A DNA stretch of 64,000 bases from a virus. Taxonomy: Duplodnaviria > Caudoviricetes. The position numbers and the translations under genes were made by a program. Of this stretch, positions 6,610 to 49,032 are shown piece by piece. The first letter of the stretch is position 1. Each line of letters begins with the position of its first letter. The notes beneath the pieces are model-generated. The model had not been told where the DNA came from, did no database searches, and was given only the letters and a program-made list of their open reading frames with translations. The stretch covers positions 64,001 to 128,000 of IMG/VR virus record IMGVR_UViG_3300020050_012045. The stretch is one strand, 5' to 3'.

Positions 6610-7764
6610 TTAGCCGCCCCAGCCGTATTCAAGAGTACCTAGGAAGGGTGACGCGGTTGTAGTTGCGCCAGTCCCGAACAATAACCAAGTCAAGCACGCA
6701 CCGTCTTCGATCTGAGGCAAAGACACAAGCTGTGACCGCAAGTCCCGTTCTGCGAGCAAGCCAGTTACAGGTAACACAATCTCAGCAATAGGTTTGACGA
6801 TACACAAGGCGACGACACCAGTACCTGTATACGCAACGCCACCAGACCAAGTGAAAGATTCAATAGATTTGATTCCTGTGTCCGCCGCTTGCTTAGGCAG
6901 GAAAGCGCCGTAACGACCCGTTGCGTTGCCCGAGTGCAAAATACGTGTCGCATAGGCGTCAGCTGCTGCGCCCATTGATGGCGTCCCCTGGAAAGCCCGC
7001 GTGTTTGTTCCGGCTTGATTTGTGTAAGACGAGGCGGTCAAGTTCGGGCCGCCAGCCGTTGGTGCTGTCTGCACAACAAAAAGAGCTTCGCATCCAGCTC
7101 CGTTTGGAGAACGCTGCTGAATCGTCAATGTATGGGTACCAGTACCAGCATCCGTAAACGCAATAACCGTGCCAGCAATTGCGTCAGCCAACGAAGCAGC
7201 TACACGAGCCGTAGTCGCCGAAACCCGAACTAAATAGTAGTCGGTAGCAAGTGATAATCCAGTCGGCAACGTTGTAGTGGTCGTGAACTGAACTTTCGTA
7301 AACGTACTAAAATCGTTCGTGTAGGTTAACAGCAACCCACCAGAAGACGAAGCCGTGAAGGTATTGGTGTTAATCAAAACACGAGACCCTGTGCCGGTCA
7401 CGTTGGTCGTGCTAAGACGATAGTACCCTTGAAGATCCACGAGCATCGCAACCCAAGGCGCACCTGCGGCTGCAACCATCATGGATTTCATTGATAAAAG
7501 GTGCTTAGTTGCCGAAGGTCCGACAACACCACCATGCTGTGGTCCGATAACGACGGTTCCATCGCCGGATGTTTCCCAGCAGGATTTATACACGAGATCG
7601 GTCCCCGGAAAGGTGCCTGCATTGGGGTAACCGTTCAACCCGGTTAGCATATGCCAGCCGCCAGCTGTATGTACAGGAGCAGTGGATTTGAATGTATCAA
7701 TCCGTCCACGCTTAGCGTTAACGGTCATTTGATTCAGCATGTCGTCGTCAGAAGTATAGCCCAT
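6610..7764 (-). CDS. virion structural protein (paralog of 7768..8619)
   Basis: Shares GPFL..ADTGI.S, LVKPI and IEDGA.L motifs with its neighbour. Confidence 0.75.
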   Translation of the reverse strand: MGYTSDDDMLNQMTVNAKRGRIDTFKSTAPVHTAGGWHMLTGLNGYPNAGTFPGTDLVYKSCWETSGDGTVVIGPQHGGVVGPSATKHLLSMKSMMVAAAGAPWVAMLVDLQGYYRLSTTNVTGTGSRVLINTNTFTASSSGGLLLTYTNDFSTFTKVQFTTTTTLPTGLSLATDYYLVRVSATTARVAASLADAIAGTVIAFTDAGTGTHTLTIQQRSPNGAGCEALFVVQTAPTAGGPNLTASSYTNQAGTNTRAFQGTPSMGAAADAYATRILHSGNATGRYGAFLPKQAADTGIKSIESFTWSGGVAYTGTGVVALCIVKPIAEIVLPVTGLLAERDLRSQLVSLPQIEDGACLTWLLFGTGATTTASPFLGTLEYGWGG

Positions 7765-38541: not shown

Positions 38542-38823
38542 CTAAAGATTGTTAGGTGGTTCTGGAACGATATTGCCGTCTTTGTCGACCCAGACAAGTT
38601 TGCCGTCGCGCATAGTGGGTACGGGTCGGCCTTGATCGTGATGTTGCTTTACGGCGGCTGAGGCAGCATCTTTGAAGGCTTGTTCCTCCTTGAGGAGTTC
38701 TTCAGACTTCAGGATAGGCGACTTAGGCCGGTTGAATGACGGCATGTTCTCCAGATGGTCGTCTGGAGTAAGGGTGATACGGATTACTTTACGTGGTTTG
38801 GTAGGAATCATGATTTCTCCCAT
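38542..38823 (-). CDS. small protein with ILKS motif and antitoxin-like C-terminus
   Basis: AAVKQHHDQGRPVPTMRDGKLVWV. Confidence 0.6.
   Translation of the reverse strand: MGEIMIPTKPRKVIRITLTPDDHLENMPSFNRPKSPILKSEELLKEEQAFKDAASAAVKQHHDQGRPVPTMRDGKLVWVDKDGNIVPEPPNNL
38544..38551 (-). promoter_or_regulatory. putative late promoter CAATCTTT
   Basis: 9 nt before ATG 38534. Confidence 0.6.
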
Positions 38824-41774
38824 ACTTCTGAATCATCGCCTGCTGTGTCTGGATCTAATTCCGTTCCCTTTGTTGGTGCATCAAAGTCAGACAGCTCGTT
38901 GGCCAGCATGTCTATCTCAGCCTTATCATACACCGGCCCCATGTCTGGAGCCGTTGGTTTGAAAAAGTGACCAATACCCGAGTAGCTTTGTTTTGGCACT
39001 GGAAATCCATGTTTCTCCACTAGGTATTTGTCATGCGGCTCAAAGGGGTTAGTAGTTGGTTTAGTGTTATAGTAACTCAAGGTATGCTGAATGTCTTCTT
39101 TAGGTATCGTCAAAAACGGCTGCTTGTGCTGAAAAATTAGCTCATGCTCATGTGGGTGTATGTGATCTTGTGTTTCGGACACTTTATGGACGCCAGAATG
39201 TAACAGGTCTTCCACTGGCATCCACTTTCTCATCATGACAGAAGCATTGTTTTGACCACGAACGTAACGCTCAGAAAAGCTTTTTGCGATACTCTGCTTG
39301 GTCGTCCACGAGCTAAACTGAGCATTGGGAATCTGGACGTCATCCGCTCCTTGATCCAAAGCGGTCTTGATTTTATGTCCGTATTCACCACCGACACCAC
39401 GATACACTAAAATATGGGGTTTGCCATCGATATGTTTGATTGCAGCTCTTGGATCTTTCAGAAGCGCGGATTGAACGTCCTGAGCATGGAGGGCTATGCC
39501 CTTGTGAATGCCTGGGTATACACTTGAGCGCCCCCTATCTCCTCTGAAGCCGGTCAGTGTCACATCATCGTCATTGCCATTGTGATACTTCTGAACAGTT
39601 GCAAAATGATCAGCCTTAACTGATTGTTCGTAATCATTCCAGAACTTATGGACTCTTTCCTTGATTAGAGATGGATGGGAATGTAACCTCTCTAACAGCT
39701 CTTGGTGTCTCTCTGTCTTGTGCTGATTGTAGGGATATCTATCGAGCACGTAAACAATCTGGGAGATCATCCTAGGGTTGTCGAAATGACTATTCAGATC
39801 CTGTCGGTCTGGGTCGATCGATAGCTGATTGGCGATCATGTCAGCAGGCTGAGTTCCTGACAAGGACGACACAGCTTGGGCAATTTGCTCAGAGTTGAGA
39901 CGCACCCCTAGTTCTGCATTACTTCCAATTTGAGACAAAGCAAATCCCCCAATCGCTGGATGATTGGCCAATTCATGAGCGATTACTTTTTGCTTTTGAG
40001 AGTCCTGCACCATACGATGAAGACCAAGCACTATATTTGAGTCCCACATCGGGTTTTGCTTCCACAAAGCGTGGTAGAGTTTAGCTCGATCTTGCGGTCC
40101 AACGTTTGCCTCAAGCAGTGCATGTGTCGGAATTCCGTTACCGCTAGCGACCGCCGCATCTAGCGTTCTGTGGAATTCCTCGGGGGTCACAGTGGAAGCT
40201 AGATGTGGCGGTAAAAACATAGCTCGCCCTGGAGAACTCATAGCCCACTGTTTGAACTTTTCACCCAGCCTAGGCTTCGTGCTAATATCGGGATCTTTTA
40301 GAGACTCACCATCCCCTTGCAAAAAATCCATCACGGTATTGGTGCTTAAGTGCGGCTGAGCCGTGTCAGAAGTGAAGCTGTTCTCGAAAAAGTTTACGAG
40401 ACCATCTTCAGATGCAAGCCTCATCTCATGGCCGATGTCTCTTTCCAAGTAATTAGAGATCTTCTCGAAACTTGGGAATTTTTCAGCCGCCTCAGAAAAT
40501 CTACTTAGAGAGATGTCGGCAAAAACCCGTCTCTTCAGGGGGTTGTCGCTATTAAGGACTTTGCTGATTGATGAATGAATCCCCCCTTGATTCCAGATCG
40601 CCTCAATTGGTGCTTCTTTTAGAAACTTTTTCAACTGTCCTGCCGACATCGCCTTGATCATCCCATCTGGCGGCGGTGCAGGAACGCCGTATGGATTCTT
40701 ATTATTCTTGACCTCTGAGAGATACAGATCTTGCTGCCTTTGGACGTCATCAGACAGTGGATTATGTTCATTGAGATCGATCTCGTGCTGCCTCTGCTTC
40801 TGTCTCTTCTGTTCAGCCTCATGCTCAGCAAGCTCTTGTTCGTCCATCAGAAACCAAGGCTCGTCATCTTCTGCCTTAACCAAGCTCTCATTAGGCTTGA
40901 CCCACAGCTTCAGCATCAGACCAATCGAGTTCTTGGCGTTCTTCAGGGTGTCAAACCGTCGCTTGAACGGTTCGACATCGATCCCATACTCTCTCAAGAT
41001 CTGGAAAACCCTAGTCTCGTCAATCGAGTTCAGCCAGTTCAGGAACTGAGTCTCTTGAACAGCTGATGGTTTAGCTAGATATCGTAACTTAGCCTCAGGA
41101 GGAAGGGTGTTAAAACCCTTGGGAGCGTCCGACCGCAAGTAGTACGGGATGAAGGTCTTGGTGTCGCCACCTGGATTGAAGCCATCACCCGCGAACGCCC
41201 CACCGTGGTCAATCAGTTTGACGTCTTCGGTCTCTGGGTCAATCAGAATGTTATTTGAGTGACGGTCAGTGTTCCCAAGAACGTAGTCAAGGAATGACCA
41301 TTGCCACATTTGGCCACTGTCTTGGTAGTCCTTAAAGATATCAATGACGCCCTGTTCGCCAGTTGGCTTCTTTTGTAGGAACGGAATGTTCTTGTAGCCT
41401 GTGTCGGCCAGTTCGATTGCGGCGGTCTCGTGGCCGTCCAGGAAGACAACTGTTGCTTTGGCGAACTGGTCACCATCCCCAACTAGTGACGCGATCTCAG
41501 AGAACGCCGCTTCGCGCTTGGACTTAGAGACAGGTAGGTCGTTAACCCCAGCAGCTGGTGATTGTTTCGAGACTTCTGGCTTAAGGAGCCATGCTCGTTC
41601 GTTTTCGGGATCCAGCGCAATCGCCGCCCCGTTGGAATACTTACCGGCCAAATGGATATCAAACACGAGGTGCTTAGCGTAAGCTTGCTGAATAGCCTCG
41701 GCGGTCCCCTTGTCTTTGGCGAACAATGGCTGGACGTCACGTGGAATGACGGAAGCTGAGAATTTAGCGTCCAT
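38808..41774 (-). CDS. multidomain protein: HipA/PI3-4K-like kinase, helical region and R-S-E ADP-ribosyltransferase
   Basis: LLKP, REAA, DYVLGNTDRHSNN and LIDHG; VYRG...FSSWTT...HEHELI. Confidence 0.8.
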   Translation of the reverse strand: MDAKFSASVIPRDVQPLFAKDKGTAEAIQQAYAKHLVFDIHLAGKYSNGAAIALDPENERAWLLKPEVSKQSPAAGVNDLPVSKSKREAAFSEIASLVGDGDQFAKATVVFLDGHETAAIELADTGYKNIPFLQKKPTGEQGVIDIFKDYQDSGQMWQWSFLDYVLGNTDRHSNNILIDPETEDVKLIDHGGAFAGDGFNPGGDTKTFIPYYLRSDAPKGFNTLPPEAKLRYLAKPSAVQETQFLNWLNSIDETRVFQILREYGIDVEPFKRRFDTLKNAKNSIGLMLKLWVKPNESLVKAEDDEPWFLMDEQELAEHEAEQKRQKQRQHEIDLNEHNPLSDDVQRQQDLYLSEVKNNKNPYGVPAPPPDGMIKAMSAGQLKKFLKEAPIEAIWNQGGIHSSISKVLNSDNPLKRRVFADISLSRFSEAAEKFPSFEKISNYLERDIGHEMRLASEDGLVNFFENSFTSDTAQPHLSTNTVMDFLQGDGESLKDPDISTKPRLGEKFKQWAMSSPGRAMFLPPHLASTVTPEEFHRTLDAAVASGNGIPTHALLEANVGPQDRAKLYHALWKQNPMWDSNIVLGLHRMVQDSQKQKVIAHELANHPAIGGFALSQIGSNAELGVRLNSEQIAQAVSSLSGTQPADMIANQLSIDPDRQDLNSHFDNPRMISQIVYVLDRYPYNQHKTERHQELLERLHSHPSLIKERVHKFWNDYEQSVKADHFATVQKYHNGNDDDVTLTGFRGDRGRSSVYPGIHKGIALHAQDVQSALLKDPRAAIKHIDGKPHILVYRGVGGEYGHKIKTALDQGADDVQIPNAQFSSWTTKQSIAKSFSERYVRGQNNASVMMRKWMPVEDLLHSGVHKVSETQDHIHPHEHELIFQHKQPFLTIPKEDIQHTLSYYNTKPTTNPFEPHDKYLVEKHGFPVPKQSYSGIGHFFKPTAPDMGPVYDKAEIDMLANELSDFDAPTKGTELDPDTAGDDSEVWEKS

Positions 41775-44311
41775 CAGAACATCCTCCGAAGTTGCTCAAT
41801 GTCATTAACCGTCTGTTGTGTCCGTGGTAGTCCATATGCAAAAATAGCCGCCCACACCGGATTGTCATCGTACCGCCACAGTGCTTCTCTGTAAAGGTCT
41901 TCATCAAACTGAGCGTGAGGCGCTAGGGTCTTAGCTGCACGGAACTCTGGCAAGGAGGAGAAATCCCCCATTGCGATCTTAACCGGGGTGTGGAACCTGT
42001 TCAGAATGTGCTGATAGTCTTGAGTGTACTGTTGCTGGTCGAATTTGTGAAGGTTATTGAGTTCGACCCAGTTCATGATCTCGGACTTTCCAAGATAGTT
42101 CTCTTGGGTTGGCACGCCTAGATACTTTTCATTATTCTGGGTCTGAGCAGACTCTGGACCATAACCACCCTTAACTGGGGTGTACCCCATTTTAGGGGGA
42201 GCGTCACCGTAAGTGTTCTGGTGGTGGTGAGTTAATGGTTCATTGGGATCTAGACCAGATAAATCAGGGTTTTTGTGCTTAGCTTCGGCAGTGAACATGA
42301 CGACTTTAAGCGGCTGGTGGTCAGTGACCTGCCCTGAGTCACGAAGATGTTGGTGGAACGCTTCGTGGAGCACAGTAGTTGGGGCCTTACCTTGCCACAA
42401 AATCTTTTTAATTTTGTCCCACTTTACCCCTTGGACGTGGCCGTTTGTCTGGGAGTAGTCGGACTGAAGCTCGTCAATGTGAGGGATGCCGTCGTCACCC
42501 TTAGTGTATCTGACCCAACCTATGCCGTCATCAGCCGCAACTGGGTGAACGCCAGACTTAACGATCTTGTCGTGTAAGTCTTTGTATTCGTGATAGACGC
42601 CTTCGGCAAGCATTTGGCGCTTTTGACCTGGCGTCATGTGAAGCCTGAAGACGTCCTGGTTGGGGTGCCCATCTTCGTCTTCTAGGTGGTCGTCATGTCT
42701 CTGGTGGGGTCCGTCATAGTATCCGTGAGAGTATTTGTACTGAAGCTTAGGGAGTGAATCGATTCTCTGGCTTAGCTTAGTGACGTCAGTGTTTCCCTTG
42801 CCATCGAACACGTGAGCGTGACCTTGGGTCCGAAGGTCGATTCCCAGATCCTTAAGCTGTTTCTCGTTGATTACCCCGTTGTTTTGTTTGGCATGCATTC
42901 TAGCCAAACGAAGACGATTGGACCCAATAGTGACACCAATGTGTGAACCGGAATTATCGACGTTTCTTAATCCGTTGATGATTGGATGGAAACCAACTGG
43001 GTACATCGCCTTAAGTTTTTCAAATTGTTGATCGTTAGCGACAGGCAGTAGTCGCTCTAGGAGTTTACCTCCGTCGCGATTATAGTAGTCAGGTGGAGAT
43101 TTCATGGTTGACATATAGTTCTCTATATGTCGCTCATCGATTGGCAGATGTAGAAGATCGTCAGGCTCCCTATCTCCCGTAAACAGCTTTAGTGAATGCT
43201 CTTTATCAAACTTCGGGTGGTCAGTCAGCCGGAAAGTATGGGTTGGATTCTCGTCCATCAGGCGATGGATATCTTGGGACTCAAGATGAGGCGACTGGGT
43301 AATCTGCCTCAGAATTTCTTCCTGTGCAAACTGATGAGTGGACAGAACCGGATCGTTACGCAACCGATCGTACACTTCCATGGTTTTGTTACGCGAAATT
43401 CTTCCCGCCGCTTGAGCCGCAACCCAGTCGTTACGTTGGGTCAGTTTATCCAAGTGTTGAGGCGTAGCATGTTTAGCGGCAGCTAGGAGCCCAGGGTGCT
43501 TGTCGACCATGTAGTCTTGGGACTCGGGCGACCACTTGACGTTTCTTGAAATCTCACCATTTAATTCTTCCAAAGCGTACGGTGTGGCATTTTGGGCAAA
43601 GAACTGCTTTTGCGCCTCTGGCGAGAAAACGTGCTCAAGACCAGGCGAACTTAAGTCGTTAAAAGCTAACCTAAGCTTCCTTGGTGGTGCAGCGGGATTC
43701 AACGCCGCTTGCTTGACCATGTCGCCAACAACTCGATGCACAACCTCTGGATGTTTCTCTGCAAACTCAGCTCTGCCTTCTGAGGTGAGGTTTTGGTTAA
43801 CAAACAAGTCGTAAGCGTTCTCTGGGGTTAGCTTGTGGGCGGCTTCTATCGGAGCACGCCCTTGGCCTGTCTTGACCAACTTACCGTACAGGTCGTTCAT
43901 GACCTCCGGGTCTTGAGCAAATGGATGCTCGAATACCTTGGTCACATTGATGGAATTTCGATCAGTTGAACTATTCACGATGTGATCAAACTGATCTTTT
44001 GACAGAGCGGGGTTATCAAGGGCGTCCGAGCTGAGGTTGAAGTAGTTTCGAGGGAAGTTATTTATGACAGCCTTGATCAAATGAGCATAAGCGGGGTTCT
44101 TGATTAGCTGTGACCTAGCGGTCTTAAACAGCTGCTGCTGATCACTGGACCGATAGTTAGGGTCTATCAGAGCATGAGCTAGCGAGTCGCTAATCTTGTG
44201 CGTCTTGATTTTTTCGGCGATTTTACGGGCTTTAGGTGATGGCCAGTCGTTCTCGTTTTGTTCAATGAGATACGCCTCTTCCTCAGGTGTCAGGCTCGGA
44301 ATGTCACTCAT
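41774..44311 (-). CDS. multidomain protein: helical repeats plus a GWVRY...IDELQSD polyvalent-type domain
   Basis: NPALS/HP helical repeats; IGWVRYT...HIDELQSD; LGKS boundary. Confidence 0.65.
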   Translation of the reverse strand: MSDIPSLTPEEEAYLIEQNENDWPSPKARKIAEKIKTHKISDSLAHALIDPNYRSSDQQQLFKTARSQLIKNPAYAHLIKAVINNFPRNYFNLSSDALDNPALSKDQFDHIVNSSTDRNSINVTKVFEHPFAQDPEVMNDLYGKLVKTGQGRAPIEAAHKLTPENAYDLFVNQNLTSEGRAEFAEKHPEVVHRVVGDMVKQAALNPAAPPRKLRLAFNDLSSPGLEHVFSPEAQKQFFAQNATPYALEELNGEISRNVKWSPESQDYMVDKHPGLLAAAKHATPQHLDKLTQRNDWVAAQAAGRISRNKTMEVYDRLRNDPVLSTHQFAQEEILRQITQSPHLESQDIHRLMDENPTHTFRLTDHPKFDKEHSLKLFTGDREPDDLLHLPIDERHIENYMSTMKSPPDYYNRDGGKLLERLLPVANDQQFEKLKAMYPVGFHPIINGLRNVDNSGSHIGVTIGSNRLRLARMHAKQNNGVINEKQLKDLGIDLRTQGHAHVFDGKGNTDVTKLSQRIDSLPKLQYKYSHGYYDGPHQRHDDHLEDEDGHPNQDVFRLHMTPGQKRQMLAEGVYHEYKDLHDKIVKSGVHPVAADDGIGWVRYTKGDDGIPHIDELQSDYSQTNGHVQGVKWDKIKKILWQGKAPTTVLHEAFHQHLRDSGQVTDHQPLKVVMFTAEAKHKNPDLSGLDPNEPLTHHHQNTYGDAPPKMGYTPVKGGYGPESAQTQNNEKYLGVPTQENYLGKSEIMNWVELNNLHKFDQQQYTQDYQHILNRFHTPVKIAMGDFSSLPEFRAAKTLAPHAQFDEDLYREALWRYDDNPVWAAIFAYGLPRTQQTVNDIEQLRRMF

Positions 44312-47300
44312 TATTGCACCTTAGCCATCTGGGGCATCTTTGAGATAATGTCAGCTGCACGGTCGTTGACAACCCTACCGTAATGCTTATGGAAGTCCTG
44401 GATATACTTTTCTGACTCTGGGGTTAGTCCAGTTTCGATTTGTTTTCTGGCACCGTTCTCGCCCCAACGCCAACCAAGGGCGGAATGTCCAATGTTTCCA
44501 TTAAATACCGACTTCAGCCGATTCCACTCTTTGCCAGCAACAGTGTTGTACAGATGAGGGTTTGTCTGGAACTCTTTTAGGAACGCCGCCTGAACCTGTG
44601 GGTTCTTTTTCAGCTCCAACGGATGCTGTGACAACGGAGCGATGTTCGGGTAGATCTTCCGTAACGTTGGATCGTTGACGAAGTGCTCTAACCCGGTAGA
44701 TGGCTTCATCCCCAACGGGCCGTAAGCGGTTTCAAACTCGCCGCCAGAATGAGCGGCATGGCCCCACAACTTACCACCAGCGGATTCATTCCCGGCTAAT
44801 GCGACTAATTCAGGGTGTAACCCCTGCATGGTCCACGAACGCTTTGCTTCAAACTTGCCTGGAACATGAACTGTTTGGGCATCAGCAGACGTAGCCCCAA
44901 AGCCCTTAGTCTGGTCCATTTGGATTGGGTCTTTAGGCTGAGCCTGTACTGAACCTGACAAAATGGAGGCGGCTGCTAAACCCATTAGCTGATGCTTGAA
45001 AGACTTGCTAAGGGGTTCATTCACTACCACCCATTCTAGTAGCTGTTCAGTGGTCGGGGCAAACGATTTAGCTAGCTGTCCTGGCACGGAAATTGCTGCA
45101 CGGGTCGAGACTGGCTTGACGGCCTTCATGTACCGACATGCTGCGTCAAAGACGTTATGTGGGAGCTTGTCTTTAGCTAAACTAAGATATTGGTTACGAA
45201 AACCATATGAAGCGTACTTCCACGGAACGAGCTTAGGATCGTAAAGTAGAACATGATCAACATCTTCACCCAACCCGCGAACTATCTTGGCAGGAAGTGA
45301 AACCTTCTTATCTGGACAGTTAGCCAACGTCTCAAGGGCGTAAGATGACGGACCGTTAAGAAGAACGTGGTCAACGTCGAGCAAACCTTCACAAACAAGC
45401 TCAGCTAAAGCGTCGTCACCCATGTCGTGCCAGTCGGTCATTGACGACCGTTGGTGTTCTGGAGCGTTTCTCAAAGCTTCCTTGATGACGTTCAGGTTCT
45501 CGCCCTTTTGAACTTGATCAGCTTTTGGATGTTCCCATTCATCTCTTCTTCCCATTGGAAGTCCCGTGTGCTGCTCCAAAGCTCTTACAGCTAAATTTTT
45601 AGCCGATGGATGATCGAATGAGTGAAAATTACATCCACCTTTGTGATTAGCTAAGGCATACAGCTCTTTCTTGTTTGGGTGGACAAAACCCTCTATTCCC
45701 GCGATGTTCTCATCAGATCCTTTTAATTTAGTGTGAGCTATCATGCGGTTTCCGTATGACTTCACCTCTGTCTCGTACGGACTCTCTGGCTGAGCCAGCT
45801 GTTCATCAAGTGAACGACCATCTCCGCGAATAACCGATATTGGGGTTGGCTTAGGTCCGTTGTATTCAGCGTAATGCAAGTGCTTAGGTTCTGTGGCTAA
45901 TTTAACGGATAGTTCCGGATCTTGAGTAAGTTTCTGCCAAGTTTTGTGAGCGCCAAGAGAGACGTGGGTATCGGACGCCATTCGTCCATGCGTTTTGACC
46001 ATTTGCTTATACAGCAAGGTTCCGTATCCTTGACCTATAAGGTGGCGAGCTGTGGCCGTTTCACCATGCTGAACAACAGGGTGCTCATCGTTCCATGGGA
46101 GCCCTCTGTCTACATTGTATTGAGAAGCAGGGGTAGTGCCCGAAGCCGAACTGGCGAACCTCTCGCCAGCGAGCGGAGTTGGGCTGTTTGTTAATTCATG
46201 AAAGGTAGAGACATACCCCGATTGACCGACTGGCTGGTGATAAACATGATGATATATGCGACCGCCACCTAAGTCGGTGTTGGTGTCGTATGTTTCAACT
46301 TTATGCTGAGCTTCACTGCCGTAGATTTTATGGGGAGTCATACGTCGAGCAGTGTCTTCGCTAGTCAAGCCCACTTTCTTGAGATCTTCACCCTTAAGGA
46401 CGTACTCGTATGGAGCGAACCGAGAATCAAAGTCGCCTGGCTGCTTGTCGCCGACCGTAGATGCTTCGGGTTTGTAGTCCATTCCGTGCTTTTGAGACAA
46501 ATGTTGGTGAACAGCGGACGCAGCAGTTGAATGCTCGTCTCCCTTAACTCGGCCAATACCCAGATGCTTAGCATGAACAAGAAGCGCTTCGTAAGCGAGC
46601 TTGCCTAGCCCCTTGCCTCTGTGTGGGTTATCCACAGACGAGAACCGTACCCTAGCTACAGACGGTTTGAAATGGAGCATTCCAGAAACCATTCCGGCTT
46701 CCTTAGCTTTGTGCCAAATCTTGGCTCCAATACCGTGCTCTCCTGGATCGCCAAAGTCGCGGGTTTCGACAGTCATCCGATAACCGTCTTTGACCAGCTC
46801 AGGGGGCAACATATGCGTGTACGAGTGAACTGGACCCCAATGGGTTGAAGTCAGCTTCTTGCCCTTAGGGATATCCGACAGGGATTTAGATAGGTCTTCA
46901 GCTGGAGCTTCGTTATCTTCCCAGTTTTCCTCGTCAAAGGATTCAGGTTGAATGTCAATCCCAGTCTTGGTGACGGTTTCAAGCTTGTACTGAGACGCAT
47001 CGCTCAGATGTAACGCCTTCATTTGGGCGATTTTGTTGATTGCGTCACGACGTTGGTTGTTTGAGCCATCGTCATTGGTCGCTTGATCAGAGGAATCATA
47101 GGTTTCGACGTGCAGCCCCATGTTGCGAAGGAGTTGCTTAGTATGCTCAGACGCCGTATGTGGAACGACAGCACCCTTGAACTCATGAAGACCGACCGCT
47201 CGCTGAGGCTTAGCTTCAAAATACTCGGTTGGTAGGTTACGCAGACGATGAGCGAATTCTGCGATCTTGGCGACTTGGTGAGGCTGGAGGTCCAGGCCAG

Positions 47301-49032
47301 ACTCTTTAAGTTCGCGGCTTAAATACTTACCCTTTTTGTAAGACTCGCCCATCGCTTCCAAGACTGGAGACGAAGACAGGTCATTAGCGCTCAGGAAGTC
47401 TGTGAACTCATTGTCTAGTTGCTCGCACTGAGCCTTGAAGCTCTTGTTGTCAATTACCTTGTGACGATCCTTTTGGATGTCCTCGACCGAACGGAATTTC
47501 TTGGCCCCAATAGCTCTGGTAGATCCAAGGCCGTAGTTAAAGTTCTCGCCGCCACGCACTGGCTTCTTTGTGACTTCTTTAACGATATTGGACAGCGTAT
47601 ATGGAAGCTTACGATCCCTAGGGCCGTTGATGGTATCAACACGCTTAGGTATGTAGCGGTCACCAACCAGTTCCTTTTCTTTCGAGGCTTTCCAGTGGTC
47701 GAAGTCTTCTTTATGGGGCTCGATTAGCTTAGACACCTGTTCATTGTAGTGGTCAGGATCGTGTTCTGTTTCGCCAACCTTGTTCGCCTGAGTTACAATG
47801 CGATCCATTGCGCCATAGTTTAATTGACCATTATCAAAAAGATAATCGTACTCTGGCGCTCTTACCAATCTCTGAACGACTTCTTCATCTAGGTCAGTGC
47901 GGTTCCCAGCAAAATTGTGACTCTCGATAGCTTTTTTAACGGCATCTGACAAAGTTTTGTGCTCTGGTGAGCCAAACACTATGTTCCGGCTCAAAGCTGG
48001 GGTGCCGCGAAGCTGTTGAACATGAGGTGATACTACCCATTCATGTCTGTCGATCTTTTTGGGTCTGGTCTGAGTAGGGACTGCAATGCCCTTCTCTTTA
48101 AGAAAAAGAGACGAGAGGACTTTGTTAGGTGTATCGCCCACGTACCTAGGGTCCGTTAACTTGCCACTTGCTAACAGGTCAGTCTCTATACCCTGATCGG
48201 CACCGTTCTTGTCTACAAGCTTAGCGTGCTCTCTTAGGTCTCTTGCGAAGTTAGTCCACTTTTTCTCGTTGAGCGCGAACTTAGCCCGTGGATGTCTAGG
48301 CGAGTAAACATCTGCGTCAAATACGGGCACACCCTGTTTAGGGTCAACCAAGGTGTGGTCGCCAACCAGAGTAATCTCACCAAACGAAGACAAGGGGTGG
48401 TCTTTGTGAGCAATCGCAATCGATGGGGCGGCCAACCCACCAAGCTCGTGAGCATGATGAAGCCCAGCTTCGCTTAGGTTGTGGGTAACTATTAAGTTCT
48501 TCTCTGGTTCAGGCTTTGCTTTAGCCTTGACTGGTTTTGGGCCAGTTGGCTTAGCGGACAACCCAGCAACGAGCTGTGCATCTTCGGTCTTAATCAAGTC
48601 CAGGTATTCGATTGGCATCAACTGGAGCAGAACGTTGTGACCTTCTGGAATATGAAGGTTGTTGGCGATCTTAGCTGGAAGCCCATGCTTGATGTCAACG
48701 AACTTCAACGAGTCTTCAACGAACTCATCGTCCGGGTCGTTCTTGCATGATGGAACGTAGTCAGCTGGAGCTTTAACCTTGAACACATGGACAATCATCT
48801 CGCCAGACTTGATGTGCTTACAGCCAATGTACTGGCAGTCCTCTTCAGTCAGGTCGAGGTCACCCTCTTCTTTAGCTTCACGAATAGCGGCTTCAGTTGG
48901 GGACTCATCACCTTCCATAGAGCCGGCTATGGTCGTCCAGGAAGAGTTATCCTTGCGACGCCCCCACAACATAGCGCCGTCAGGGTTAAAGACGCCGAGG
49001 CAGACGACTTGTTTTGGTTGTGAGTTTTTCAT
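44311..49032 (-). CDS. giant polyvalent protein: Nudix, HNL..PSIA..YFEAK domain, two GNATs and SLT lytic transglycosylase
   Basis: Nudix box GSMEGDESPTEAAIREAKEEG; HRGKGLGKLAY; LIGQGYGTLLY; NES..AYGPLGMKPST..ALGWRWG. Confidence 0.85.
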   Translation of the reverse strand: MKNSQPKQVVCLGVFNPDGAMLWGRRKDNSSWTTIAGSMEGDESPTEAAIREAKEEGDLDLTEEDCQYIGCKHIKSGEMIVHVFKVKAPADYVPSCKNDPDDEFVEDSLKFVDIKHGLPAKIANNLHIPEGHNVLLQLMPIEYLDLIKTEDAQLVAGLSAKPTGPKPVKAKAKPEPEKNLIVTHNLSEAGLHHAHELGGLAAPSIAIAHKDHPLSSFGEITLVGDHTLVDPKQGVPVFDADVYSPRHPRAKFALNEKKWTNFARDLREHAKLVDKNGADQGIETDLLASGKLTDPRYVGDTPNKVLSSLFLKEKGIAVPTQTRPKKIDRHEWVVSPHVQQLRGTPALSRNIVFGSPEHKTLSDAVKKAIESHNFAGNRTDLDEEVVQRLVRAPEYDYLFDNGQLNYGAMDRIVTQANKVGETEHDPDHYNEQVSKLIEPHKEDFDHWKASKEKELVGDRYIPKRVDTINGPRDRKLPYTLSNIVKEVTKKPVRGGENFNYGLGSTRAIGAKKFRSVEDIQKDRHKVIDNKSFKAQCEQLDNEFTDFLSANDLSSSPVLEAMGESYKKGKYLSRELKESGLDLQPHQVAKIAEFAHRLRNLPTEYFEAKPQRAVGLHEFKGAVVPHTASEHTKQLLRNMGLHVETYDSSDQATNDDGSNNQRRDAINKIAQMKALHLSDASQYKLETVTKTGIDIQPESFDEENWEDNEAPAEDLSKSLSDIPKGKKLTSTHWGPVHSYTHMLPPELVKDGYRMTVETRDFGDPGEHGIGAKIWHKAKEAGMVSGMLHFKPSVARVRFSSVDNPHRGKGLGKLAYEALLVHAKHLGIGRVKGDEHSTAASAVHQHLSQKHGMDYKPEASTVGDKQPGDFDSRFAPYEYVLKGEDLKKVGLTSEDTARRMTPHKIYGSEAQHKVETYDTNTDLGGGRIYHHVYHQPVGQSGYVSTFHELTNSPTPLAGERFASSASGTTPASQYNVDRGLPWNDEHPVVQHGETATARHLIGQGYGTLLYKQMVKTHGRMASDTHVSLGAHKTWQKLTQDPELSVKLATEPKHLHYAEYNGPKPTPISVIRGDGRSLDEQLAQPESPYETEVKSYGNRMIAHTKLKGSDENIAGIEGFVHPNKKELYALANHKGGCNFHSFDHPSAKNLAVRALEQHTGLPMGRRDEWEHPKADQVQKGENLNVIKEALRNAPEHQRSSMTDWHDMGDDALAELVCEGLLDVDHVLLNGPSSYALETLANCPDKKVSLPAKIVRGLGEDVDHVLLYDPKLVPWKYASYGFRNQYLSLAKDKLPHNVFDAACRYMKAVKPVSTRAAISVPGQLAKSFAPTTEQLLEWVVVNEPLSKSFKHQLMGLAAASILSGSVQAQPKDPIQMDQTKGFGATSADAQTVHVPGKFEAKRSWTMQGLHPELVALAGNESAGGKLWGHAAHSGGEFETAYGPLGMKPSTGLEHFVNDPTLRKIYPNIAPLSQHPLELKKNPQVQAAFLKEFQTNPHLYNTVAGKEWNRLKSVFNGNIGHSALGWRWGENGARKQIETGLTPESEKYIQDFHKHYGRVVNDRAADIISKMPQMAKVQ

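Follow-up and report, generated by a model that had tools for sequence, protein, structure and literature searches.

Iyer, Burroughs, Anand, de Souza and Aravind (2017, PMC5512222) proposed that polyvalent proteins are packaged in the virion and enter the host together with the DNA, and that their lysozyme domains breach the peptidoglycan. The processing described there is mainly by built-in zincin-like or assemblin-like peptidases (PMC5512222), whereas the protein studied here carries joints resembling those of a head protease. A term search of the main text of that paper found neither 'signal peptide' nor 'transmembrane', and such searches of the same paper and of a review of phage wall-breaching enzymes (PMC6116005) turned up nothing about internal signals ahead of virion lysins. 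Like the polyvalent proteins, the phage protein described here strings together Nudix, PBECR5, GNAT and lysozyme-fold domains; unlike the published ones, its muralytic domain has a conserved signal-like leader of its own.

In phage T4, IPI-III and Alt carry a capsid-targeting leader ending in a three-residue motif, are cut by gp21 in the prohead and are ejected with the DNA. The N-terminal cassettes of the present family, short leaders that end in L-E-K, resemble these cargo leaders. However, the T4 motif ends in Glu and the present one in Lys, and the capsid protein of this phage is distantly SPO1-like rather than T4-like. We know of no export signals in the T4 cargo.

Lytic transglycosylases act in the periplasm, which the cellular enzymes reach by Sec signals, whereas the signal-like segment described here is internal. 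The domain behind it shares with Slt70, MltE and phiKZ gp144 a lysozyme-like fold with an E-S motif at a helix end. As in specialised lytic transglycosylases, G-x-L-G-x-K-P-x-T replaces G-L-M-Q, and W-R-W-G stands in place of the AYNAG of lytic transglycosylases. VirB1 and T7 gp16 are further specialised lytic transglycosylases. Peptidoglycan-degrading activity is recorded for gp16 in the review (PMC6116005), and the T7 gp15-gp16 core complex was a weak structural match to the present domain (Z 5.1).

SAR endolysins likewise have a weakly hydrophobic, Gly/Ala/Ser-rich leader before a phage muralytic enzyme (reviewed in PMC6116005). SAR domains lie at a natural N-terminus, belong to lysis cassettes and join in the refolding of the enzyme, whereas the leader here is internal, sits in a cargo cluster and is followed by a linker of ~35 residues before the domain. 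The tape-measure protein Pb2 of phage T5 has fusogenic and muralytic parts; to our knowledge, it has no protease-created N-terminal leader. It combines a membrane-active hydrophobic segment with a wall-degrading domain and leaves the virion at infection, as is proposed for the present protein, but Pb2 belongs to the tail and carries a peptidase domain, and there is no homology. The review mentions a peptidoglycan-cleaving domain in Pb2 (PMC6116005).

We analysed a 64,000-nt window of a 158.6-kb virus record, which belongs to an uncultured Mx1-like phage. A minus-strand gene at 44311-49032 encodes a 1573-aa protein (open reading frame and translation) that holds at least two unrelated effector domains in one polypeptide, namely Nudix, PBECR5 (a family from PMC5512222) and GNAT together with a lytic-transglycosylase-like domain. 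Judged by this domain content, the product is a polyvalent (multi-effector) protein. No built-in peptidase was found in the 1573 residues, and no second cassette of the kind described below among the 206 ORFs of the phage. The neighbouring genes are of cargo type and do not encode small membrane proteins, and the gene cluster shares synteny with the head regions of Myxococcus phage Mx1 and of another contig. The capsid gene lies ~16 kb away, and the interval contains nucleotide-metabolism genes. The middle region of the protein is uncharacterised, and its C-terminal end is a cassette of joint, segment, linker and domain, with positions 44311-45012 running exactly from LSK to the stop codon. 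The features are listed below; in this text a slash within a motif marks a putative cut.

44311..49032, minus strand: polyvalent gene, with Nudix (aa 8-104), PBECR5 (aa 174-272) and GNAT (aa 760-842) domains assigned by Pfam and PHROG matches.
45004..45012, minus strand: L1341-S-K1343, candidate head-protease joint with a predicted cut at K1343/S1344, from the sequence pattern.
44941..45003, minus strand: signal-peptide-like segment S1344-A1364, which follows LSK and reads SFKHQLMGLAAASILSGSVQA/QPKD (coordinates checked by script).
44839..44940, minus strand: linker Q1365-R1398, pLDDT ~43-60; throughout the family it is polar and rich in Pro, Ala and Gln.
44323..44835, minus strand: divergent lysozyme-fold, lytic-transglycosylase-like domain, ~W1400 to A1570, pLDDT >90.
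44785..44787, minus strand: E1416 (in GNES), candidate catalytic Glu, invariant in a 33-sequence alignment.

A signal-like segment right after LSK, about 1340 aa inside the protein, had been reported from the sequence-only reading, and the hydrophobicity profile bore this out. The segment has an n-region SFKH, an h-region at ~L1349-L1358 and a c-region ending in V-Q-A/Q; the h-region lies inside an uncharged run (Q1348-V1362), and the stretch is rich in Ala, Gly and Leu. On the Kyte-Doolittle scale, no other 11-mer of the protein is as hydrophobic as LMGLAAASILS (1.93), and among 15-mers the one at 1348 ranks first (1.38). As a rough estimate, the probability that either of the two LSK sites would by chance be followed within 10 residues by the top hydrophobic stretch is ~1%. 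The 19-mer average is 0.82 on the same scale, a value in keeping with the h-region of a signal peptide but insufficient for a stable helix in the membrane, and a stable transmembrane anchor was rejected on these grounds. After a cut at K1343/S1344 the n-region would be SFKH, with one Lys, whereas in the uncut protein 1343 residues precede the segment. Nor is the segment buried in the predicted fold, since the AlphaFold model shows it as an isolated helix with pLDDT <50, followed by a largely disordered linker. L1341-S-K1343 itself falls in a low-confidence loop with one predicted helix on either side.

The domain behind the linker had been called SLT-like from its motifs, and GNES, AYGPLGMKPST and ALGWRWG are all present in it. 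These motifs correspond to invariant or near-invariant columns of the family alignment, namely E96 (equivalent to E1416), G118, K123 and W201. In an exhaustive VIA-align search, the best eight structural matches were all family-1 lytic transglycosylases (LtgA, Cj0843c, MltC, Slt70, phiKZ gp144, Slt, MltE and MltF), with Z of 8.3-10.5, rmsd of 2.6-3.2 A and 124-133 residues aligned. Foldseek against the PDB gave Slt as its top matches, although weakly (E 0.13), and none at E<=0.001. An hhalign profile comparison placed E1416 on the ES of Slt70 (ARQES), an alignment that is weak when taken alone (E 0.15); we take the Glu of this motif to be E478, the catalytic residue of Slt70. Sequence libraries did not recover the assignment. 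Neither PF01464 nor any other Pfam family matched fragments of 233 and 329 aa at E<=10, no model in Pfam, PHROGs or NCBIfam matched the domain, and none of 33 family members had a Pfam match. A PDB profile search with the family alignment returned a GNAT match only, which came from extra C-terminal columns. The homology search yielded 215 domain homologs at E<=0.001. The fold and the alignment of E1416 thus support a divergent lytic-transglycosylase-like domain, and the searches mark it as a lysozyme-fold family that has not been catalogued and that counts over 200 cluster representatives.

Conservation was assessed in homologs reduced to cluster representatives of at most about 50% mutual identity. 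In 144 of 151 homologs, a hydrophobic segment lies no more than 100 aa upstream of the domain, and L-x-K-[GSNA] stood directly ahead of it in 113 of these 144, compared with 3.8% of control windows. The expectation that homologs would keep both the motif and the segment was therefore confirmed, and the pairing extends to phage Mx1. In its homolog (WNM70333.1), the order of the domains differs and another domain precedes the cassette; Mx1 was the only match in a tblastn search of 50,697 phage records with the cassette as query. The genome paper of Mx1 (PMC10720576), searched by term, gave nothing on virion proteins. With the tighter family alignment as query three related loci were recovered, and with the single fragment none.

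The 113 L-x-K cassettes comprise 90 internal ones and 23 at gene starts. Four of the latter were checked at the DNA level and had in-frame stops 4-27 codons upstream. The N-terminal cassettes begin with a short acidic propeptide of 6-12 residues ending in L-E-K. Such a propeptide before L-x-K resembles the T4 capsid-targeting leaders. The domains upstream of the internal cassettes are unrelated to one another (Nudix, ParB-like, GNAT), and since the cassette also occurs at N-termini, it is not part of any upstream fold. An internal translation start was rejected as an explanation: Met occurs at +1 to +6 in 13 of the 90 internal cassettes, and there is none there in Mx1.

The charge layout around the joint resembles that of a signal peptide preceded by an acidic stretch, with a net charge of -1.47 over positions -8 to -1 and +0.59 over +1 to +5. 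After the joint Lys, the next charged residue lies at a median distance of 22 (IQR 20-24). In the family logo, +3 is Lys in 44% of sequences and +5 to +14 are rich in Ala, Leu and Gly, and the first residue after the putative cut is Gly in 49% of cassettes. The n-region left by the cut is short, and in some homologs without net charge. From the joint Lys to the first helix of the domain the homologs have a median of 47 residues, with a conserved linker of ~25-45.

In the alignment the segment is in register with the canonical N-terminal signals of about eight stand-alone homologs, which carry Sec or lipoprotein signals at this position, one of them with an LSGC lipobox. A 205-aa copy on a 130-kb viral contig (L010), lying between two polyvalent genes, has a textbook signal ending in ARAYA/P, and one internal cassette has a twin-Arg n-region (SLFRRAL). 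None of the 113 L-x-K cassettes contains a lipobox or a Cys. Mean hydrophobicity was 2.41 for the canonical stand-alone signals and 1.91 for the L-x-K cassettes, a weaker h-region that speaks against a Sec reading. The V-x-A site described by the sequence-only reading is present in this protein as V-Q-A/Q. Across the family, A-x-A occurs in 51 of 113 cassettes against 49.9 in shuffles, with no enrichment beyond the Ala-rich composition and hence no family-level support for signal-peptidase processing.

LSK occurs only twice in the 1573-aa protein, at aa 714 and aa 1341, and a similar LAK/S lies at aa 1320. Comparable sites recur elsewhere. The joint after the Nudix domain is LIK/T in this phage and LSK/S in Mx1, where the downstream partners differ, and L-x-K/[AS] is conserved at the capsid N-terminus (SLVK/AW in this phage, ELRK/AM in Mx1). 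Such sites also recur in the scaffold-like protein of both phages, with several of the form x-K/S-[ED], and K-[SAG]-[ED] lies downstream of the lytic-transglycosylase domain in 60 of 124 homologs. On these patterns, L-x-K/[SGA] is a candidate Lys-specific head-protease code. The identification of the candidate protease (746 aa) is weak, consisting of a single 38-residue PHROG match (E 1.9e-6), and there was no Pfam match for it. The segment had also been offered as independent support for LSK being a true cleavage site. That support is fair without being decisive, because the conserved L-x-K-[GS]-[WL]-K could partly be the n-region of the signal itself. The Nudix joint shared with Mx1 and the recurrence of the motif in capsid and scaffold-like proteins speak against a pure n-region reading of L-x-K.

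We propose, with a probability of roughly 0.45, that the cassette marks a membrane or periplasm address of the muralytic domain that is unmasked by a head-protease cut. The cassette has three parts: an L-x-K/[SGN] joint, a signal-peptide-like segment with ~18 uncharged residues behind one Lys, and a flexible linker with the domain. The hydrophobic segment would be the domain's own membrane or periplasm address, masked as long as it is internal and behind acidic residues. Masking would keep the polyvalent protein in the cytoplasm of the producer cell, from where, we infer, it is loaded into the prohead. A cut at K1343/S1344, most likely by the head-maturation protease, would leave the segment at a newly formed N-terminus, where its length and its arrangement of charges would be those of a Sec signal, and from the sequence pattern such cutting probably exposes the address. 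Once ejected into the next host, the ~25-kDa fragment would go to the inner membrane, most likely by the Sec route from the cytoplasmic side, so that the domain could reach the peptidoglycan. More tentative is the wider proposition of 'inject, then export', in which the head protease would turn internal stretches of cargo polyproteins into Sec-type signals and the host machinery would send a wall-cutting enzyme delivered to the cytoplasm back to the periplasm. The long linker is as compatible with a permanent tether as with a cleaved signal. If the enzyme is meant to assist the entry of the DNA, it would be required at a stage preceding arrival in the cytoplasm, which counts against the export reading.

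A second reading keeps the cut and dispenses with Sec. The fragment might leave the tail tube directly into the periplasm, where its Gly- or Ser-started peptide would enter a membrane leaflet and the linker would tether the enzyme beside the entry site; the peptide would then behave much as viral fusion peptides do, or as the fusogenic portion of T5 Pb2. We consider this unlikely, although several features fit it: the frequent Gly at the new N-terminus and the ~14 Ala/Gly/Leu-rich residues that follow, the conserved linker, the unenriched A-x-A and the hydrophobicity below that of the true signals of the family. Wall cutting would also be useful at entry, as Iyer et al. postulate for polyvalent lysozyme domains (PMC5512222). 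Yet the conserved +3 Lys and the tight ~22-residue length are features of signal peptides, the stand-alone members and the gene on the 130-kb contig use ordinary signals, of Sec or lipoprotein type, at the corresponding position, and the twin-Arg cassette makes sense only from the cytoplasmic side.

Other readings give up delivery or targeting altogether. The protein might act in the producer cell rather than as capsid cargo, either through a cytoplasmic cut and export of the fragment for wall remodelling or lysis, or with the segment tethering the whole protein to the membrane. The copy with a canonical signal on the 130-kb contig, which must be exported where it is made, points this way, as does the distance of the gene from the capsid gene with nucleotide-metabolism genes between them. 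We nevertheless regard this as improbable, since the joint motif has counterparts in the capsid and scaffold-like proteins, the cluster shares synteny with two head regions, the N-terminal cassettes keep their acidic propeptide before L-x-K, and so weak an h-region is unlikely to be an internal signal-anchor. The Nudix, RNase-like and GNAT domains are, moreover, typical of injected polyvalent proteins as these are described in PMC5512222. Very improbable, in our estimate, is that the segment targets nothing and is either the relic of a captured gene for a secreted transglycosylase, for which the secreted stand-alone members would be possible donors, or a structural helix for packing, autoinhibition or binding inside the capsid. 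Against this reading, the segment persists with a position-specific pattern in 144 of 151 representatives this divergent, survives domain shuffling and is predicted to be isolated and undocked on the domain.

Both the domain family and the candidate Lys-specific code are directly testable in cultured Mx1. Proteins injected by phages are usually viewed as cytoplasmic actors or as parts of the entry channel. If the cassette is an address unmasked by the head protease, as we propose, an export or anchor signal would be reserved for the one domain whose work lies outside the cytoplasm, and cargo proteins would be sorted to different host compartments after delivery. It would then also be understandable that an enzyme bound for the periplasm is produced in the cytoplasm and packaged there without premature export.

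The virus record around the window is 158.6 kb long and has direct terminal repeats. The product of the gene studied here is a 'polyvalent' phage protein as defined by Iyer et al. 2017 (PMC5512222), and LSK occurs in it twice, at aa 714 and aa 1341. The second LSK is the joint (L1341-S-K1343) of a cassette in which a signal-peptide-like leader (S1344-A1364) and a linker precede a lytic-transglycosylase-like (LT-like) domain (~W1400 to A1570).

Features of the gene and its protein.
44311-49032, minus strand: polyvalent protein gene, 1573 aa (ORF and translation)
44311-45012, minus strand: 3' end of this gene, cassette part
44311-45072: LT-like family region, with homologs P0003-P0152
aa 8-104: Nudix (Pfam)
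aa 174-272: PBECR5 (Pfam)
aa 760-842: GNAT (Pfam)

The sequence-only reading had placed a basic and then hydrophobic segment after the second LSK, and this segment was found, with its coordinates confirmed by script: SFKH directly follows K1343, succeeded by an Ala/Gly/Leu-rich stretch and VQA↓Q (arrows mark candidate cuts), and LMGLAAASILS is the top hydrophobic 11-mer of the entire protein (Kyte-Doolittle 1.93). The hydrophobicity profile fits a signal-peptide h-region; a stable membrane helix was a poor fit, with a 19-mer average of 0.82. In the AlphaFold model the leader forms a helix on its own at low confidence (pLDDT below 50), and the linker behind it is largely disordered; the hydrophobic segment, whose burial had been raised as an objection, does not pack against the LT-like domain in this model. 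The proposed V-x-A signal-peptidase-like site is present here, but A-x-A in the family was not enriched beyond its Ala-rich composition (51 observed vs 49.9 ± 4.3 in shuffles), so the V-Q-A site is without family-level support. The 206 ORFs that the phage encodes contain no second cassette of this kind.

No Pfam model matched the last 233-329 residues at a cut-off of E <= 10, PHROGs and NCBIfam gave no match to the C-terminal domain, and 0/33 family members had a Pfam match on the LT-like domain. With aa 1321-1573 as the query, exhaustive HMMER searching retrieved 215 cluster representatives at E <= 0.001. AlphaFold2, given the fragment and a 33-sequence family alignment (A1), predicted a confident domain with pLDDT above 90 over fragment residues ~80-250. 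Slt-type enzymes ranked first in Foldseek as a weak match (E 0.13). The best 8 chains in an exhaustive VIA-align search were all family-1 lytic transglycosylases (LtgA, Cj0843c, MltC, Slt70, phiKZ gp144, P. aeruginosa Slt, MltE, and MltF; Z 8.3-10.5, 124-133 residues aligned), and nearly all further matches were lysozyme-superfamily enzymes. When the family profile was compared with that of the C-domain of E. coli Slt70, a match that is weak alone (E 0.15), L-E-S aligned to A-R-Q-E-S, whose Glu is the catalytic E478, and G-P-L-G-M-K-P-S-T to G-A-S-G-L-M-Q-I-M-P-G-T. Invariant columns in A1 were E (E1416), H, G, K, Y, and W, and the consensus motifs were L-E-S-S, G-x-L-G-x-K-P-x-T-A, and A-W-R-W-G. 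From these results we class the C-terminal domain as a divergent, uncatalogued LT-like domain with predicted activity. The earlier SLT-like call held in fold and motif, but the domain fails the SLT sequence-model test.

The motif and the hydrophobic segment were kept in homologs, the main check that the earlier reading had called for. A hydrophobic 11-mer (Kyte-Doolittle >= 1.4) lay at most 100 residues upstream of the LT-like domain in 144 of 151 homologs, and strict L-x-K-[GSNA] stood directly ahead of it in 113/144, compared to 3.8% of random 17-residue windows in the same proteins.

Residues around the joint Lys.
-5 to -3: acidic residues common
-2: Leu 82%
+1: Gly 49%, Ser 27%, Asn 12%
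+2: Leu or Trp
+3: Lys 44%
+5 to +14: Ala/Leu/Gly-rich
after +14: Gly/Pro/Ser/Ala

Net charge was -1.47 over the 8 residues before the joint Lys and +0.59 over the 5 after it; the median position of the next charged residue was +22 (IQR 20-24), and that of the first helix of the LT-like domain was +47. Ninety cassettes were internal, with diverse upstream domains (Nudix, ParB-like, GNAT, and others), and 23 were at gene starts (M-S-x(2-5)-L-E-K-G-W-K and similar), four of which had in-frame stops 4-27 codons upstream at the DNA level and are therefore real starts. The sole cultured relative found, Myxococcus phage Mx1, has E-L-S-K↓S-W-K-S, an Ala/Gly-rich stretch, and the same LT-like domain in a protein (WNM70333.1) with a different domain order.

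About eight short stand-alone homologs lacked L-x-K and had canonical signals at their N-termini, one with an L-S-G-C lipobox. These signals occupied the same columns of A1 as the internal segment, and their mean hydrophobicity was 2.41, compared to 1.91 in L-x-K cassettes. In a 130-kb viral contig (L010:8421-16976), a 205-aa gene of its own encodes the LT-like domain behind a canonical cleavable-type signal ending A-R-A-Y-A↓P, and this gene is flanked by 490-aa (Nudix ... ParB-like) and 2036-aa polyvalent genes. The internal cassette of homolog P0077 (~aa 850) has a twin-Arg-like n-region, L-K-K↓S-L-F-R-R-A-L-T-T-G..., a hint that Tat, instead of Sec, might serve some of the cassettes.

The head module of the phage (L004) contains portal, candidate protease, scaffold-like (257 aa), and capsid genes. 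Pfam gave no match to the candidate protease, a 746-aa protein, which weakly matched a head-maturation protease over 38 residues (E 1.9e-6).

Capsid gene.
L004:3193-4599, minus strand: capsid protein, 53% identity to that of Mx1

Outside Mx1, the capsid protein had ~23-31% identity to SPO1-like and Lactobacillus/Bacillus myovirus capsids, and therefore Mx1 and its relatives may have branched off far from the rest of the SPO1-like capsid lineage. Candidate cuts after Lys recurred at the capsid N-terminus (S-L-V-K↓A-W-Q-A-G here, E-L-R-K↓A-M-E-A-G in Mx1), at several x-K↓S-[E/D] sites in the scaffold-like proteins of both phages, and at the Nudix end (L-I-K↓T here, L-S-K↓S in Mx1), after which the next domain differs; K-[SAG]-[ED] also occurred shortly past the LT-like domain in 60/124 homologs. 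Judged by sequence, this pattern would fit a head protease cutting after Lys, and the short N-terminal leaders would fit the role of T4-type capsid-targeting sequences. A term search of the Mx1 genome paper (PMC10720576) returned nothing on virion proteins.

The head module also contains a 212-aa GGDEF (diguanylate cyclase) protein (Pfam E 7.8e-11; L004:7227-7865, minus strand; G000:C1:133227-133865), encoded between the candidate protease and scaffold-like genes; Mx1 has an annotated 'nucleotide cyclase' near its capsid gene. Within the same module, Endonuclease VII/HNH-like genes (L004:2139-3074 and 6642-7133, both minus strand) adjoin the capsid gene, and the related contig L011 has an Endonuclease_7 gene in a similar place. 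Two genes downstream of the cassette gene, a 988-aa protein (window 38808-41774, minus strand) resembles PI3/PI4 kinases over aa 159-203 (Pfam E 8.8e-10), and similar kinase-like genes also neighbour the cassette gene in contig L013 and Mx1 (annotated 'kinase'). Between 44311-49032 and the Mx1 locus (L001:7608-12047), homologous blocks (Nudix; GNAT with an unknown 450-aa block; LT-like domain) are in different order, with edges at or near x-K↓[S/T/M] joints. The Mx1 protein has additional putative ART-like and ParB-like domains, judged by eye.

PMC5512222 already describes polyvalent proteins with lysozyme domains and attributes their processing mainly to built-in peptidases; a term search of its main text found neither 'signal peptide' nor 'transmembrane'. 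In a review of phage wall-breaching enzymes (PMC6116005), a term search found signal peptides and SAR domains mentioned for endolysins only, and our literature searches found no account of internal signals in virion lysins.

The cut might occur and the Gly/Ser-started, Ala/Gly-rich end then insert directly from the periplasmic side, as an anchor or like a fusion peptide. The conserved linker and unenriched A-x-A favour such insertion, but the twin-Arg case argues against it, as do the canonical Sec and lipoprotein signals that occupy the homologous position elsewhere in the family, and we regard it as unlikely. Action of the cassette in the producing cell, without packaging, seems improbable, and a leader that is a relic or purely structural helix is the least probable of these readings.

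We tentatively favour, with a probability of roughly 0.45, packaging followed by cutting at L-x-K joints and Sec-type export. The polyvalent protein would be synthesized late and would remain cytoplasmic in the producing cell because, as we propose, its leader lies inside the chain, has low hydrophobicity, and comes after acidic residues. The protein would then enter the prohead, where the L-x-K joints would be cut. After ejection, the fragment beginning at S1344 would bear a functional Sec-type leader, which would direct the LT-like domain either to the inner membrane or into the periplasm.
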